Virus record (IMG/VR): IMGVR_UViG_2654587996_000001
Coordinates: 1-36,538 of that record
Reading direction: 5' to 3' (one strand)
Origin: a virus
Taxonomy: Duplodnaviria; Heunggongvirae; Uroviricota; Caudoviricetes
DNA: 36,538 bases
This document shows, in pieces, positions 4,556 to 33,213 of the stretch. How positions within the stretch are numbered: position 1 is the stretch's first letter; the number at the start of each line of letters is the position of its first letter. Made by a program: the position numbers and the translations under genes. The notes below the pieces were generated by a model. The model ran no database searches. It was not told the DNA's origin and worked only from the letters and a program-made list of their open reading frames with translations.

Positions 4556-5128
4556 ATGGCGATAGTATTATTCCTGTTTTTATCATTGATTCACATGGTG
4601 ATGTTTATGCAACTGATTAATGTTAAACGATATTACCCGGAACACAAACCCTATGGTAATGATGTACAGTATTTTCAGAGTGAAGATGGTAAGGATTTCT
4701 ACGAGTCCCTGCCATTATTCACAAAAAAATATAAACTTTGCATAACACCAGACAGCGGCGTTATCTGCTCAATATCACAGGACGCCTCGGCACTGTATCC
4801 TGCGGGTTTTTCCGTGGTTGAGGCCGATGAACTCCCTGAAGGCACGGATATTTCAGGAAACTGGACGTTTGATAATGGCGTTATCTCCCGGCTTCCGGTT
4901 AACTACACCAAAAAAGCGGAAGCACAGCGCCAGTCATATCTTAATCAGGCATATGAAAAAATTAATGACTGGAGAACTGAGCTACAACTGGGCACGATCA
5001 GTGATGAAGACAGAGCAGCACTTACCCAATGGATGGCATACATCAGTCAGGTGAAGAAAATGGAACTACCCGCCATTAAAACAGAAGCTGAATTTAACGC
5101 CATTAAATGGCCTGAGCTGCCACAGTAA
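4556..5128 (+). CDS. Tail fiber assembly (chaperone) protein; real start probably internal, around 4595-4607
   Basis: C-terminal region DWRTELQLGTISDEDRAALTQWMAYISQVKKM resembles conserved Tfa/U-family C-termini. On the opposite strand from all other structural genes. Confidence 0.65.
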   Translation: MAIVLFLFLSLIHMVMFMQLINVKRYYPEHKPYGNDVQYFQSEDGKDFYESLPLFTKKYKLCITPDSGVICSISQDASALYPAGFSVVEADELPEGTDISGNWTFDNGVISRLPVNYTKKAEAQRQSYLNQAYEKINDWRTELQLGTISDEDRAALTQWMAYISQVKKMELPAIKTEAEFNAIKWPELPQ

Positions 5129-8111: not shown

Positions 8112-8718
8112 TCTCCGGCACTCCTGTCTTACTGCCTTCGCCGTTATCATGATGCACATGACCGGAATAGGTGATCCCGGCAATAACCGCGTCTGACATG
8201 GTGAACAGTCCCTGAGATTTCCCCGTACCATCAAGCGCGAAATTCCCCTTAACATGCAGGTTCTTATTCACCGTCACATTGCCCGTAAAGGTGGCTTCCG
8301 GCGTATCCACCTGAACACTTTCATCGGCATAAATTTCCAGCGTCTTACAGGTCACGATGATCCGGCCGTCTTTTGTCAGACGTATGCGGTGCCCCTCATG
8401 GTGATACACGCCGGTGTCTCCGGCGGTGAGTCCGGTCGGGCGGCTGCGCCGGTCTTCCACCACAAGTACCACGGCCTGATCCCGCTGCCCGCCCAGACAG
8501 GCAAAAAAGGTTTCTGCGCCCGGCAGGGGCACACTGATCTGGCCGTACTGCTGGGGGCGCTCCACATCATCAAACGTTTCGCCGTCCATGCCGGTGAACT
8601 GCACATTCTGCATTTTCAGTTCGTCGTGTGTGCCGGTCAGAACACCCCGGCCAAACAGCAGACGAATACCGCGTGTCACCGGGGCAATCAGGCGGCTGAA
8701 CACTTCATCATTCATCAA
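8104..8718 (-). CDS. Baseplate assembly/spike protein V-like (Mu gp45-like)
   Basis: 204 aa; position between the hub-like protein and gp46-like protein. Confidence 0.6.
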   Translation of the reverse strand: MMNDEVFSRLIAPVTRGIRLLFGRGVLTGTHDELKMQNVQFTGMDGETFDDVERPQQYGQISVPLPGAETFFACLGGQRDQAVVLVVEDRRSRPTGLTAGDTGVYHHEGHRIRLTKDGRIIVTCKTLEIYADESVQVDTPEATFTGNVTVNKNLHVKGNFALDGTGKSQGLFTMSDAVIAGITYSGHVHHDNGEGSKTGVPENG

Positions 8719-20162: not shown

Positions 20163-20203
20163 ATTGCCTCCGCATAAAGGATGAATATAAAATAAACAGG
20201 CGG

Positions 20204-20283
20204 TCAGTGTACGCTTAACTGGTAAAGTCGGTGCCTGCCTCCGGGTGGATCATGTATGCGGGTTCGACCCCCGCCACTGACCG
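20204..20283 (+). other. tRNA-like element: canonical T-arm plus a 7-bp acceptor-like helix; no complete cloverleaf
   Basis: GCGGG-TTCGACC-CCCGC at 20259-20275 matches the tRNA T-stem and T-loop pattern; GTCAGTG (20204-20210) pairs with CACTGAC (20276-20282). D arm and anticodon arm could not be folded by hand. Confidence 0.3.
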
Positions 20284-26669: not shown

Positions 26670-27000
26670 TCGTGGCCGCCTTGCTGATTTGTGAAATGAG
26701 TTGCAGGATGCGTTGCTGGTTTGCCAGCACCAGACGGGCTTCGTCCCGTTCACGCACAAGCACATGATTATTGTCCTCAAGGCGCTGCGTCTTCTGGTGC
26801 ATTCCCCATACCACGGCAGCCAGCACGCTCATCACCCCCAGCGCCGCCATACAGCCTCCGGCAATCAGGGCCGGTAAGGGATTGTTCACCGCAGCCACAG
26901 CACACCCCGCAGCAGCACAACGGCACACAGCAGCGCAATCATGAGCGGTCGCCAGAAGCGGTTCAGACTTTCGGCAAATCGTAACGACATAACCATTCAT
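26500..27000 (-). CDS. Inner-membrane spanin candidate
   Basis: Transmembrane segment LPALIAGGCMAALGVMSVLAAVVWG followed by a charged helical region; overlaps the lysozyme 3' end. Start uncertain. Confidence 0.5.
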   Translation of the reverse strand: MNGYVVTICRKSEPLLATAHDCAAVCRCAAAGCAVAAVNNPLPALIAGGCMAALGVMSVLAAVVWGMHQKTQRLEDNNHVLVRERDEARLVLANQQRILQLISQISKAATNEKQQNMQHSEEQQSIVRRSLATVPAASVPVPDDVADRVRRAVCEIRAGEAGADPR

Positions 27001-27463
27001 CCGCCGAACGGCGGGCCTCAAGACCGGGGAGTTTTACCCCCTTTGAATAAATCCAGCGGATATACTGCTTACAGGACGCGGGCATCTGCCCGGCATTGAT
27101 AAGGCGCAGGAGCGTGGAGTTGCGAAAGTTCGTTTCACCGGCCTGGAAAATCCAGGAGGCCAGCGCCACCGTCTGACCACGGGTAAGCGGCACCTGAACA
27201 TGACGATCGATAGCCGCAAAGGCCCATTTCATGTCCTTTTCCAGCAGCGCCAGACATTCTTCATCAGTTTTTGTCATCCCCGGTTTCACATCCGGGCCGG
27301 TATGGCCGTAACAGATGGTGAGGGTGCCGGTGGGATCAGTGTACGTGGTGTTTTCTTTCCCTTCCCAGTAGCCGGTGTAGTGCGTGGCAATGGTGAACGT
27401 CCCGGCTCCGGCCAGAACAAGGGCAATCAGCTTTTTACGCAGGGGCGCGGGGAGTTTTGGCAT
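26963..27463 (-). CDS. SAR endolysin (T4-lysozyme-like glycoside hydrolase)
   Basis: Catalytic-region pattern YWEGKENTTYTDPTGTLTICYGHTG (Glu/Asp/Thr); N-terminal Gly/Ala-rich signal-anchor LIALVLAGAGTFTIA. Confidence 0.8.
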   Translation of the reverse strand: MPKLPAPLRKKLIALVLAGAGTFTIATHYTGYWEGKENTTYTDPTGTLTICYGHTGPDVKPGMTKTDEECLALLEKDMKWAFAAIDRHVQVPLTRGQTVALASWIFQAGETNFRNSTLLRLINAGQMPASCKQYIRWIYSKGVKLPGLEARRSADEWLCRYDLPKV

Positions 27464-27957: not shown

Positions 27958-27999
27958 ACCCGCCTCCGGTCATCATTACACAAGGCAAGTTTAAAATAA

Positions 28000-28023
28000 A
28001 AATCCCGCGCTGTGGCGGGATTT
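28000..28023 (-). terminator. Rho-independent terminator at the end of the early operon
   Basis: Perfect 9-bp stem AAATCCCGC / GCGGGATTT with 6-nt loop, followed on the minus-strand RNA by UUAUUUUAAA; starts 4 nt after the gemA-like stop. Confidence 0.65.
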
Positions 28024-28027
28024 GGGG

Positions 28028-28537
28028 TTAACGGGGGAATGATTTTTCATACAGCCTGCAAACGCGCTCATAACTCATCACTGTATGTGCTGGCATCCCC
28101 AGTACAGACAGCATTTTGCGGCGGTGCCAGCGTTTGAGACGCTCCAGCACATCAGAGGCCATCGCGGGGTGTTGCTCCAGCCACTGCCAGTTAGCCACAC
28201 CTTCGCCGCCGTTCTGCGCGGCCGTCTGCGATTTCACCCAGTGGTTAAGGGCTGTTTCCCCGCCATCAGAGATAAAGCCCTGCCGGTGCATCACCTTCCA
28301 GATGGCGCGAATTTTGGCGGTCACCGTACCCGGTTTTAAGGCCCGGTTAACCGGTTTCTGACGCACTTTAAAACCGCGTTTTTTGAAAACATCCAGCACG
28401 CGGGATAACTCATCCGGTGACATATCCCGGCAACTGGTTTTGCCGGTGGCTTCCAGTAGTACGGATGTGTAGATCTCATCATCCAGGGCAAGCTCGCGCT
28501 TTGCCACATGAATAGCGGATATCAGTTTCCCTCTCAT
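28028..28537 (-). CDS. GemA-like regulatory protein (Mu gp16 family)
   Basis: 169 aa; N-terminal region LISAIHVAKRELALDDEIYTSVLLEATGKTSCRDMSPDELSRVLDVFKKRGF resembles the GemA family pattern; last gene before the early terminator. Confidence 0.55.
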   Translation of the reverse strand: MRGKLISAIHVAKRELALDDEIYTSVLLEATGKTSCRDMSPDELSRVLDVFKKRGFKVRQKPVNRALKPGTVTAKIRAIWKVMHRQGFISDGGETALNHWVKSQTAAQNGGEGVANWQWLEQHPAMASDVLERLKRWHRRKMLSVLGMPAHTVMSYERVCRLYEKSFPR

Positions 28538-28830
28538 GCTGTATCAACACTCCTGCTGATATGATAGATATTATTTTCCCGATCGAGCTGAACCCGATAC
28601 TCCGGAGGAATCACAAAAATATTAAAACCATCATCAGTTTTTATTCTTGAGTAGTATTCCCCCTTATGATATCTGGCAAGTGCATTAATCAGAGAAGTCG
28701 TCGCCAGCCCAATCAGGTATTTTTTATGAAAAATACTGATAACTTTCCGGCACAGCCATCGTGTAATGACGAATGCACCGAAAAACGATGTGATATATAA
28801 ACACCAGAACAACTGCGAACTACTGTCCAT
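28534..28830 (-). CDS. Small membrane protein (98 aa), AT-rich
   Basis: N-terminal transmembrane helix LFWCLYITSFFGAFVITRWL; AAGGAG upstream; 4-nt overlap with gemA-like gene. Confidence 0.45.
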   Translation of the reverse strand: MDSSSQLFWCLYITSFFGAFVITRWLCRKVISIFHKKYLIGLATTSLINALARYHKGEYYSRIKTDDGFNIFVIPPEYRVQLDRENNIYHISRSVDTA

Positions 28831-28845
28831 TATCTTTCTCCTTAT

Positions 28846-28980
28846 TCAGTCTTCTGCGACATTCGGCACAGTCATCAGGGCTTTCAAATGTATCCGGCTC
28901 GCGATTATGAGCCAGATATAACCACCGCCTACATATACTGATATTATCGCCTGTTTTAAAAAATGATGCTTCTTAGCCAT
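28846..28980 (-). CDS. Small hydrophobic peptide (44 aa), below the ORF-track size cutoff
   Basis: Hand translation MAKKHHFLKQAIISVYVGGGYIWLIIASRIHLKALMTVPNVAED; stop TGA 13 nt before the next ATG; weak ribosome-binding site. Confidence 0.3.
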   Translation of the reverse strand: MAKKHHFLKQAIISVYVGGGYIWLIIASRIHLKALMTVPNVAED

Positions 28981-29008
28981 CAGAGGGCGCGCCCATCCAG
29001 CGGGTAGA

Positions 29009-29383
29009 CTATTCATTTACTTTATCCTCCATACTGGACAGAATCATCTGTATTAATGTCGGGCGTGGAGATATACGCATTTCATTAAGCGTCTGAAGGG
29101 CAGCAACAGCTGCCTGTTTATCGGTGCCTTTGGCAATTTCCGCAAGAGAATGCACAATCCATAACGGACTTAACGCCACGACTGAATCCAGAATCATGTC
29201 ATCCATAATAATTTCTGGCACATCCAGTTTGTCATACTCCTTATCCATAAAAGAAACGATTTTTTCCACATCTTCCGGTTTCATGCCTCCGGCGATGAGA
29301 ATTTTTCTATATTCATAAGACGATCTTAATTCAATACTCATATTCATCTCCTGTAACGCTGACAAGGACGTAATTTTTCTCAT
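29009..29383 (-). CDS. Hypothetical protein (about 110-124 aa), AT-rich
   Basis: AGGAG directly upstream of tandem ATG codons near 29338-29346; no recognisable motif. Confidence 0.45.
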   Translation of the reverse strand: MRKITSLSALQEMNMSIELRSSYEYRKILIAGGMKPEDVEKIVSFMDKEYDKLDVPEIIMDDMILDSVVALSPLWIVHSLAEIAKGTDKQAAVAALQTLNEMRISPRPTLIQMILSSMEDKVNE

Positions 29384-29565
29384 TTATGTTTTCCAGTAAT
29401 ACGGATATATATGTCGATAAGAAGATTCATAATAAACAGGAAGAGCGACATCCTGATAAAGAACCATATATCTGGCATCATGGACAGATTTCCTGTAACC
29501 GAAAATATAAAACCAACCACCCCAACTGGAACGATAATTGCGAAAAGTATAAGTCGCTTTATCAT
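29380..29565 (-). CDS. Small membrane protein with two transmembrane segments (61 aa), AT-rich
   Basis: Hydrophobic segments LILFAIIVPVGVVGFIFSV and WFFIRMSLFLFIMNLLIDI; 4-nt overlaps with both neighbours. Confidence 0.45.
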   Translation of the reverse strand: MIKRLILFAIIVPVGVVGFIFSVTGNLSMMPDIWFFIRMSLFLFIMNLLIDIYIRITGKHK

Positions 29566-30113
29566 GGCGTTAACTCCCGTAATACAGCGTCCTCGGCGGT
29601 CCGGCGACGGTAATAAACTGCGTGAGCAGAATGTTCAGATATTCCAAACTTTTCGCCAATTTCCCGGAATGACAGACGGCGTGGGTAATCGGAATCACGC
29701 AGCGCACGTATAAGACGTACATCATCATCAGATATGCGCGTGCCGGGGCGTAACTCTCCGCACTTTGTTAATCCGGCACCAATCATTCCTGCCCGACATC
29801 TGACAGAATCTTTATTACGTCCGAGGTATTCTCCCATTTGCTGGCAGGTCATTGTTCTGGCATTTTTTCGAATAAACTTATCTTCATCAGGTGTAAATCT
29901 GGGGTGTTTATATTTCAGTAACTCCGGGTATGAACTGCGCAATACACCAGTCCGGTTATATACAGCCCAGACAGTTCTTTTTATTCTGGCAGCAATATCC
30001 TTAACCGGGGTGGATGAATAAAGCGCAATCAGCAGCGCATCTTCTTCAGGTATCCACGGACGGACATGAGCGGGGGCGCGACCTTTTCGTCCCATGGGTT
30101 GTAATTTCATCAT
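29562..30113 (-). CDS. Putative DNA-binding protein with three tandem helix-turn-helix-like segments
   Basis: Repeated pattern of an acidic patch followed by a basic helix, for example WIPEEDALLIALY..IAARIKRTVWAVYNR and ISDDDVRLIRAL..SFREIGEKFGISEHSAHAVYYRRR. Confidence 0.4.
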   Translation of the reverse strand: MMKLQPMGRKGRAPAHVRPWIPEEDALLIALYSSTPVKDIAARIKRTVWAVYNRTGVLRSSYPELLKYKHPRFTPDEDKFIRKNARTMTCQQMGEYLGRNKDSVRCRAGMIGAGLTKCGELRPGTRISDDDVRLIRALRDSDYPRRLSFREIGEKFGISEHSAHAVYYRRRTAEDAVLRELTP

Positions 30114-32350: not shown

Positions 32351-32743
32351 TTATTGCAATGTATCTGGTGCGTTCTGCAAAGAACGGCGCTCAATGCTGC
32401 TTTTCACCCCCATAGCCTGCATGGAACCCTGAAGTTCATCTGTCAGAAACTGAATAATTGTGGGGCTGTGATATTTAAGAATTTGAGCATAAACATCACA
32501 GGGTCCTGTCGGTCTGTTCTCCGTATCACGTTCGATTTTTACAGTGGCAGTAACCCCCTCCGTGATTTCCTGACTATCATTACCGGCTGGCTTTACTTCA
32601 TGCATTACGTGGTTAAATTCAAAAATAACGCGTACTTTGCTCATCCTGTTGTCCTCATTTCGTCTTAATAACTCATCCGGCGTCTGACCTGATGACAGAG
32701 CCGAACCATGAAGTAACTTCATACTTCCCAGTAGACCGTACAT
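32351..32743 (-). CDS. Hypothetical early protein; real start probably internal
   Basis: ORF overlaps the upstream gene by 25 nt; internal Met codons are plausible starts. Confidence 0.35.
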   Translation of the reverse strand: MYGLLGSMKLLHGSALSSGQTPDELLRRNEDNRMSKVRVIFEFNHVMHEVKPAGNDSQEITEGVTATVKIERDTENRPTGPCDVYAQILKYHSPTIIQFLTDELQGSMQAMGVKSSIERRSLQNAPDTLQ

Positions 32744-32985: not shown

Positions 32986-33213
32986 TTAGCTGACTTGTTT
33001 TGCACCAACAGAACGGCATATTCCACTGTAAACCTCTGTCGCACCTTCGCGATCAAGTCCGGCAGATATCACCATTCGCGTGCGGTCATTAAATTCAAAA
33101 AGTAAATCGCCACATTCTTTATTTTCGGCCAGTGAAATCACTTTCACGTTATCGAAATTCACCAGGTAAAAGCGTCCGTAGATATCAGGAATATTAAATG
33201 CAGCCATAATCAC
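32986..33213 (-). CDS. Small early protein (75 aa) in the position Mu uses for kil
   Basis: Immediately downstream of B with a 4-nt overlap; position only. Confidence 0.35.
   Translation of the reverse strand: MIMAAFNIPDIYGRFYLVNFDNVKVISLAENKECGDLLFEFNDRTRMVISAGLDREGATEVYSGICRSVGAKQVS

Follow-up and report, generated by a model that had tools for sequence, protein, structure and literature searches.

An AT-rich interval of about 1 kb, here called the island (28534-29565), was analysed in a stretch of viral DNA of 36,538 nucleotides (IMG/VR record IMGVR_UViG_2654587996_000001; the window in what follows). Comparison with related prophages indicates that the island occupies a recombinational cassette slot in the early lytic operon of a Mu-like prophage, bounded by the genes p183 and gemA, and that its genes, p61, p110, p65 and p98 in the order of transcription, behave as a set of single-gene cassettes exchanged independently. 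We consider it somewhat probable (roughly 0.55) that the slot carries dispensable host-interference proteins of early lytic growth, two of which, p61 and p98, would be located at the inner membrane.

Gene content between p183 and gemA in related prophages

The window was 100% identical to the chromosome of Escherichia coli CI5 (NZ_CP011018.1) and about 92-94% identical to Sp18, a Mu-like prophage of O157:H7 Sakai. It is an Sp18-family Mu-like prophage of CI5. Sp18 itself is described in the literature as apparently intact and spontaneously inducible (PMC2669165). The island and the neighbouring early genes all lie on the minus strand. In the direction of transcription, a ner-like gene, the Mu transposase, a MuB-like ATPase, small open reading frames (ORFs), Gam and a 180-residue ORF are followed by homologues of Mu gp11 and gp12, p183, the island, gemA and mor, and after mor come the lysozyme, spanin and head and tail genes. 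The island therefore has the location of the semi-essential early region of Mu-type phages, between the transposition genes (MuA, MuB) and mor on the same strand.

Both borders of the slot are conserved. On the left, p183 (29562-30113, minus strand) encodes a 183-residue DNA-binding protein with Myb/SANT-like helix-turn-helix repeats (phrog_323, 'D5-like'). It was detected at every locus extending far enough upstream, in the form of two alleles about 72% identical which assort freely with the cassettes. On the right, gemA (28028-28537, minus strand; gp16 family) matched the Pfam GemA family with E = 5e-30. Identity to the Mu counterpart was 44% for its product and 65% and 52% for the homologues of gp11 and gp12.

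Between these borders the gene content was found to vary. Mu has gp13, gp14 and gp54 in its gp12-gemA interval, with no similarity to the island genes, and 37 related loci displayed at least five architectures. Type A, to which the window and Sakai belong, reads p61-p110-p65-p98, and type B reads p109-p116-p110-p65-p98. Type C has p109 followed by a 103-residue p98 variant, type D has p109, a Mu gp13-like gene, a Mu gp14-like gene and a small ORF, and type E has p109, p116, a p110 with a different C-terminus and another ORF. The cassette junctions fell at gene boundaries, and alternative neighbours began with the same codons, p61 and p109 with ATGATA, the gp13-like gene and the p98 variant of type C with those for MDEQI. 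All architectures were AT-rich, with a G+C content (GC) of 40-47.5% against 49-55% (mostly 52-54%) in the flanks. Given unrelated genes in Mu, several AT-rich combinations in the relatives and a place in the early operon, the horizontal exchange which a sequence-only reading of this DNA had proposed for the semi-essential region was borne out. The same genes were not found throughout the related Mu-like prophages, so the island is variable, as that reading had supposed it might be.

The backbone was present in 232 of 5,426 complete E. coli genomes (about 4%, including O157:H7 Sakai). Among these 232, p110 was found in 214, p61 in 109 and allele 'a' of p98, the allele of the window, in 65. The unequal counts mean that the genes assort independently, and the single acquired module envisaged by the sequence-only reading was thus not sustained. 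No flanking repeat, Rfam family or tRNA was found at the island. Two scans of genome contigs yielded no loci.

The closest known arrangement is that of Sp18 in Sakai, where ECs_5772, ECs_4957, ECs_4958 and ECs_4959 are the same four genes in the same order with the same flanks, all annotated 'hypothetical'. The window differs in that its ECs_4958 homologue is frameshifted, its p98 is the other of two ancient alleles (49% amino-acid identity) and its p183 is a different allele (73%). The gp12-gemA interval of Mu resembles the window in its position in the early operon, in its flanks (gp11, gp12, GemA), in its small ORFs of unknown function and in having a GC below that of the flanks. It differs in that gp13, gp14 and gp54 are unrelated to the island genes and that no p183 homologue is present at this position.

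In the type D loci (L018, L022-L024, L026, L032-L034) the gp13-like gene encodes a Cys-rich protein of 46-47 residues that corresponds to the C-terminal part of Mu gp13 (92% identity), and the gp14-like product is 50% identical to Mu gp14. The presence of these genes in Sp18-type prophages shows that the two lineages, Mu and Sp18, have exchanged cassettes. Mu and the type D loci each have a reverse-strand ORF upstream of gemA; that the two represent one conserved gene was considered and dropped, as they are dissimilar. In one IMG/VR locus (L017, 1-2680) gemA is directly preceded by host arnB-like DNA, IS1 and a DUF2513-like gene on the reverse strand; the locus is a prophage truncated in the early region.

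Base composition

The island was described by the sequence-only reading as markedly AT-rich, and a sliding GC profile confirmed this. Its GC of 40.0% is the lowest of any interval of this size in the window, where 1032-bp windows had a mean of 54.7% (standard deviation 5.2). The G+C content at third codon positions (GC3) was 0.387 for p61, 0.396 for p110 and 0.404 for p98, compared with a mean of 0.570 (standard deviation 0.098) over 51 coding sequences, and island genes supplied four of the six lowest GC3 values in the window. Low GC is present at third codon positions and is therefore not a mere by-product of hydrophobic amino acids. p183 is equally AT-rich (GC3 0.397), so the block runs past 29565 into 29562-30113 and is wider than the sequence-only reading had stated.

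Three further AT-rich ORFs were seen elsewhere in the window and are candidates for additional accessory genes. A 73-residue ORF (32986-33207; GC3 0.365) lies after the MuB-like gene at the position of Mu kil, a second of 97 residues (GC3 0.408) occupies 32351-32644, and a third of 100 residues, on the plus strand near a com-like gene, spans 1153-1455 (GC3 0.396).

Selection on the island genes

Pairwise ratios of nonsynonymous to synonymous substitution (dN/dS) were obtained from 35 related IMG/VR loci and from E. coli genomes. The ratios were 0.28 for p61, 0.15 for p110, 0.11 for intact copies of p65 and 0.17 for p98, and in the backbone 0.19 for gemA, 0.20 for the gp12 homologue and 0.16 for the gp11 homologue. 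Each island gene also has a Shine-Dalgarno sequence. Since the ratios fall in the range of the backbone, the island contains protein-coding genes kept by selection, and the four gene families are under purifying selection.

It could be argued that the island is non-functional DNA in decay and that selection on its ORFs has ceased, given that p65 is frameshifted in the window, that frameshifts recur in relatives and that no known domains were found in the products. This explanation is very improbable and is largely refuted by dN/dS values comparable with those of gemA, gp11 and gp12. The Shine-Dalgarno sequences and gene-boundary junctions are also preserved, and p110 has been kept in nearly all of the backbone-positive genomes counted above.

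Sequence-profile searches of the PDB with p110, p98 and p65 alignments found nothing. The Sakai locus tags ECs4956-ECs4960 yielded no mention in the literature.

The membrane hairpin p61

p61 (29380-29565, minus strand) is a 61-residue protein with two hydrophobic helices, as the sequence-only reading had stated; the KD19 hydropathy peaks were 2.82 and 1.91. It is the orthologue of Sakai ECs_5772. The gene overlaps its upstream neighbour by ATGA and is preceded by a GGGAG Shine-Dalgarno sequence, and in one locus (L014) it is frameshifted. Both termini of the protein are basic, the C-terminus reading RITGKHK, and an N-in/C-in topology is predicted. As a small predicted inner-membrane protein with two strong helices, p61 has the size and predicted location of a membrane exclusion protein. 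Among PHROG families it gave only a weak match, to phrog_19804. A tblastn search of 50,697 phage genomes gave no match to p61 save a Mu-like insert inside a Shiga toxin (Stx) phage record, and the same outcome was obtained with p98.

The same features, namely 61 residues, two hydrophobic helices, both ends predicted inside and a basic C-terminus, are those of a class II holin, and p61 could accordingly be imagined as a holin- or antiholin-like protein controlling the timing of lysis. However, holins of this kind would be expected in the late lysis cassette beside the endolysin gene, and p61 is an early-operon gene: about 2 kb separate it from the lysozyme gene (26963-27463) and the spanin genes downstream, with gemA, a terminator and mor in between. 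More than half of the prophages that are otherwise similar lack it, and no holin family was matched in Pfam or PHROGs. A role in lysis timing is thus scarcely credible.

The anchored protein p98 and its overlap with gemA

p98 (28534-28830, minus strand; phrog_17269) is a 98-residue protein with an N-terminal anchor helix at residues ~7-25 and a basic flank, and its gene shares a 4-nt ATGA overlap with gemA. Both the single helix and the overlap had been noted in the sequence-only reading and were recovered here, the helix being borderline by the Kyte-Doolittle scale. An N-out topology with a C-terminal domain of ~70 residues in the cytoplasm is predicted. The family is small, with six clusters among 5.8 billion proteins, and comprises two ancient alleles of 49% amino-acid identity. 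Between the alleles the anchor is 81% identical at the nucleotide level and the C-terminal two-thirds 51%, with saturated synonymous divergence (dS). The alleles combine freely with the two p183 alleles. A BLAST match between p98 and Mu gp8 (E = 0.028 in a database of 14 sequences) was judged insignificant.

The ATGA overlap of p98 with gemA was present in all type A, B and C loci, and a p65 homologue overlaps gemA likewise in a Salmonella Mu-like prophage. This would be consistent with p98, and perhaps p65, being a stoichiometric partner of GemA, made by translational coupling, with p98 tethering or modulating GemA at the membrane. Such a partnership is nevertheless distinctly unlikely: gemA occurs without p98 in Mu, in type D and E prophages and in the Salmonella lineage, the p98 alleles do not co-vary with alleles of gemA or p183, and overlapping start and stop codons are the norm across the operon.

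The acidic helical protein p110

p110 (29009-29341, minus strand) is an acidic, all-helical protein and the orthologue of ECs_4957. The longest ORF spans 29009-29383, but the true start is at 29341, giving 110 residues, because similarity to variants and to distant homologues sets in at MSIELR, with an AGGAG sequence 8 nt upstream. Variants of p110 that have another upstream gene also begin at an MSIELR-type start. The protein of roughly 110-124 residues which the sequence-only reading proposed as soluble is real, with its length now fixed.

The protein belongs to the SfMu ORF14 family (phrog_1988, E = 2e-42). This family is confined to 11 clusters at 50% identity among 1.84 billion proteins (profile hits P0020-P0029), and in the collection of 50,697 phage genomes it was found only in Mu-like phages, namely SfMu, four Yersinia phages and the insert in one Stx-phage record. 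Viral scans with the profile hits P0026, P0027 and P0029 found nothing. In the paper on SfMu, ORF14 is noted to lack a homologue in both Mu and D108 (PMC4406740), and from its position the SfMu homologue of p110 at 8126-8446 appears to be that ORF14. ORF14 and its homologues in the Yersinia Mu-like phages vB_YpM_3/5/6/23 are ~30-40% identical to p110, with full-length similarity, shared ALSxxWI...DKxAAVxAL motifs and the same gp12-gemA slot. They differ in lying between gp13 and gp14, whereas p110 in the window follows the membrane hairpin gene. The slot also holds homologues in the SfMu-type prophages L042-L051 and in the loci L052-L056, a third lineage with a GemA of only 30% identity.

In the third lineage a 77-residue two-helix membrane protein (5778-6011 in L052, also in L053-L056) is encoded directly before the p110 homologue and overlaps its start, an arrangement which echoes the p61-p110 order. 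Homology of p61 to this protein was rejected, there being no sequence similarity.

The frameshifted gene p65

The region between p98 and p110 was treated in the sequence-only reading as a gap (28831-29008) containing a hydrophobic peptide of 44 residues (28846-28980) and a perfect GC palindrome. The gap is not intergenic because the p65 gene fills it. p65 (28820-29016, minus strand; ECs_4958, phrog_2358) is an early gene for a 65-residue His/Cys (zinc-ribbon-like) protein, frameshifted in the window and labelled 'frameshifted' in RefSeq. Relative to Sakai and to the intact allele of locus L038, one T is missing from a run of seven on the coding strand, leaving T6 (28958-28963, minus strand; an A-run on the plus strand). 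Apart from this the window copy differs from the L038 allele by one synonymous change. The shortfall in CI5 may be a homopolymer assembly error. The 44-residue peptide proved to be the tail of a 56-residue ORF (28846-29016), that is, an out-of-frame translation of p65. The intact protein is non-hydrophobic and the hydrophobic stretch arises out of frame, so that one of the four products listed in the sequence-only reading is a frameshift artefact.

The palindrome GGGCGCGCCC is indeed present at 28985-28994. It is coding sequence for W-A-R-P within the invariant AGWARP motif of p65, is imperfect in Sakai (GGGCGCGGCC) and is of a kind that occurs no more often than expected by chance: GC-only palindromes of 10 nt were not enriched, with 2 observed and 4.3 +/- 2.1 in Markov simulations. 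It is not a regulatory element.

Intact p65 homologues have invariant H17, H18, C29, C50 and C53 (His-His...Cys...Cys-x-x-Cys), and from this pattern the protein is plausibly zinc-binding. The intact family is more widely spread in enterobacterial temperate phages than p61, p98 or p110. In a Salmonella Mu-like prophage the homologue lies directly before gemA, and in a Citrobacter prophage it is found in a lambdoid-type early region.

Frameshifts recur in the T7A4 run that contains the site (window 28954-28963). T6, T9 and A3 variants are implied by protein sequences in differing allelic backgrounds (the window, proteins P0044-P0046, loci L060 and L061), and the run is therefore a mutational hot spot. 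All of these variants open the same alternative frame with the hydrophobic tail. The frameshifts are likely to represent mutational decay; it is less probable that the run switches the product between a soluble His/Cys form and one with a hydrophobic tail. Programmed ribosomal frameshifting at the T7 run was considered and rejected, as the -1 frame stops at once and the hydrophobic tail is in the +1 frame. Mutational insertions and deletions in a homopolymer account for the data, and short truncated products of the other frame would escape detection.

Expression of the island

The island genes are packed on one strand with overlaps of 4-11 nt or a 38-nt spacer. A crude consensus scan for internal promoters gave 5 promoter-like sites against 4.9 expected. 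No terminator with a G+C-rich stem was found inside the island, where one weak site (3 G-C pairs) lies within the p61 coding sequence. Directly after gemA is a strong intrinsic-terminator-like hairpin (28000-28023, minus strand) of 9 pairs with a T-run, which is likely to be the end of the early transcription unit containing the island. Because the genes are packed and show no internal promoter or terminator signal, their expression would come in lytic growth, from the early transcript controlled by the repressor, alongside that of the transposase, Gam and GemA.

The gap between gemA and mor (27958-28027), in which the hairpin lies, parts mor from the early operon; in Mu the two genes overlap. 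The gap is a second variable site in the relatives, occupied by an IS4-family transposase in L018, by a reverse-strand gene for 140 residues and a gene for 78 residues in L004 and L010, and by ~700 additional bases in L035.

A moron is by definition a transcription unit that is autonomous, having a promoter and a terminator of its own, and it is usually expressed in the prophage state. The island shares with the morons of lambdoid and HK97-like phages a deviant, AT-rich composition and an insertion between genes that are adjacent in related phages. A moron or defence module of this sort, expressed in the lysogen from its own promoter and acting in superinfection exclusion, in abortive infection or as a toxin, would fit the AT-rich composition typical of morons and acquired genes, the small membrane proteins similar to known exclusion proteins in size and topology, and the varying gene content of relatives. 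However, the consensus scan gave no sign of an autonomous unit, with promoter-like sites at chance level and no G+C-rich terminator stem. The start and stop codons overlap those of neighbours within the early lytic operon, the four genes are exchanged separately and no match was obtained with PADLOC. The island does not look like a lysogen-expressed defence system, and we regard this explanation as unlikely. The abortive-infection function offered by the sequence-only reading is disfavoured on the same evidence, as is exclusion in the lysogen; host killing or exclusion may still occur during lytic growth.

Our preferred reading, a slot of early-lytic host-interference proteins, treats the products as accessory. 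They would be dispensable, since the genes vary in presence and absence and frameshifts are tolerated both in p65 (the window and P0044-P0046) and in p61 (L014). Two of them, p61 and p98, would work on the cytoplasmic side of the inner membrane, where they might alter a host machine associated with the envelope or membrane, in the service of host takeover, or keep competing phages out in the course of the lytic cycle.

Several points weigh against this reading. The low GC could reflect a common AT-rich pool of phage accessory genes instead of recent transfer, and the island may possess a weak or non-sigma-70 internal promoter, given that the scan was a crude consensus one. The hidden Markov model and structure predictions suggested by the sequence-only reading were run and found no family of known function and no specific fold. 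Neither the island products nor those of the alternative cassettes gave a significant match in Pfam or NCBIfam, or any match in PADLOC at E <= 0.1, and the PHROG matches were all to families of 'unknown function'. Fold searches with the models returned non-specific matches (helices) only. The AlphaFold2 models were themselves of low confidence: that of p110 has six helices with a mean predicted local distance difference test score (pLDDT) of only 51.6, and that of p98 has a long N-terminal helix followed by a helix and a four-strand beta meander with a mean pLDDT of 67. The p98 anchor has a borderline hydropathy (KD19 1.43 here, 1.82 in the Sakai allele). The topologies of both membrane proteins were derived with the positive-inside rule by itself, from hydropathy and charge distribution.

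Other features of the window

Searches of the CI5 chromosome with the backbone, p61, p110 and p98 each matched two places, which suggests the presence in CI5 of another related Mu-like prophage or of a second copy. Amid the head-morphogenesis genes, RefSeq annotates a 'tRNA-OTHER' at 20203-20282 (plus strand), where ARAGORN and Rfam at gathering thresholds report nothing. A tail-fibre assembly gene at 4607-5128 (plus strand) lies on the opposite strand to the flanking minus-strand tail-fibre genes in a low-GC patch (41-46%). An invertible host-range segment is reported for Sp18 (PMC2669165), and 4607-5128 may be part of it. No invertase gene is annotated in the window.

Discussion

The island is routine phage mosaicism with ORFan genes, in an accessory slot of a well-known kind. 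Its genes would gain weight only if p61, p98 or p110 had a defined exclusion or anti-defence activity. In small size and membrane anchoring p61 and p98 resemble T4 Imm and Sp and P22 SieA. T4 Imm and Sp are small, membrane-anchored proteins. p98 departs from this comparison in that its domain is predicted to be cytoplasmic and not periplasmic. In the Pseudomonas Mu-like phages, early accessory proteins such as D3112 Gp05 (Tip) and DMS3 Aqs1 give superinfection exclusion (PMC11436027), and exclusion genes are known in Fc02 (PMC9936078). The island genes are like these in being small, probably non-essential and lineage-variable and in lying in the early region of a transposable phage, and the host-interference role is proposed by analogy with them. 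No similarity of the island products to characterised exclusion proteins was found in the Pfam, PHROG and fold searches or, for p61 and p98, in tblastn of the 50,697 phage genomes.

Few parts of a classic model phage are as poorly understood as the small genes of the Mu-type early region, and such slots in other phages have yielded exclusion and anti-defence proteins. The present analysis provides a corrected gene map of one slot, evidence of selection on its genes and evidence of their movement as single-gene cassettes. It also provides candidates in p61, p98 with its two alleles and the Mu-phage-specific p110 family. A more ambitious proposal, which we hold to be a speculative and rather improbable one, is that the interval from gp12/p183 to gemA is a dedicated arms-race locus of enterobacterial transposable phages, similar to the anti-CRISPR and accessory loci of the Pseudomonas Mu-like phages, in which single-gene cassettes, lineage-restricted membrane proteins among them, are swapped at conserved start-codon junctions and p98 and p61 are new inner-membrane effectors. 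If this were true, p98, with its conserved anchor and anciently dimorphic cytoplasmic domain, and p61 would serve in lytic growth to counter a host defence or to shut out rival phages.

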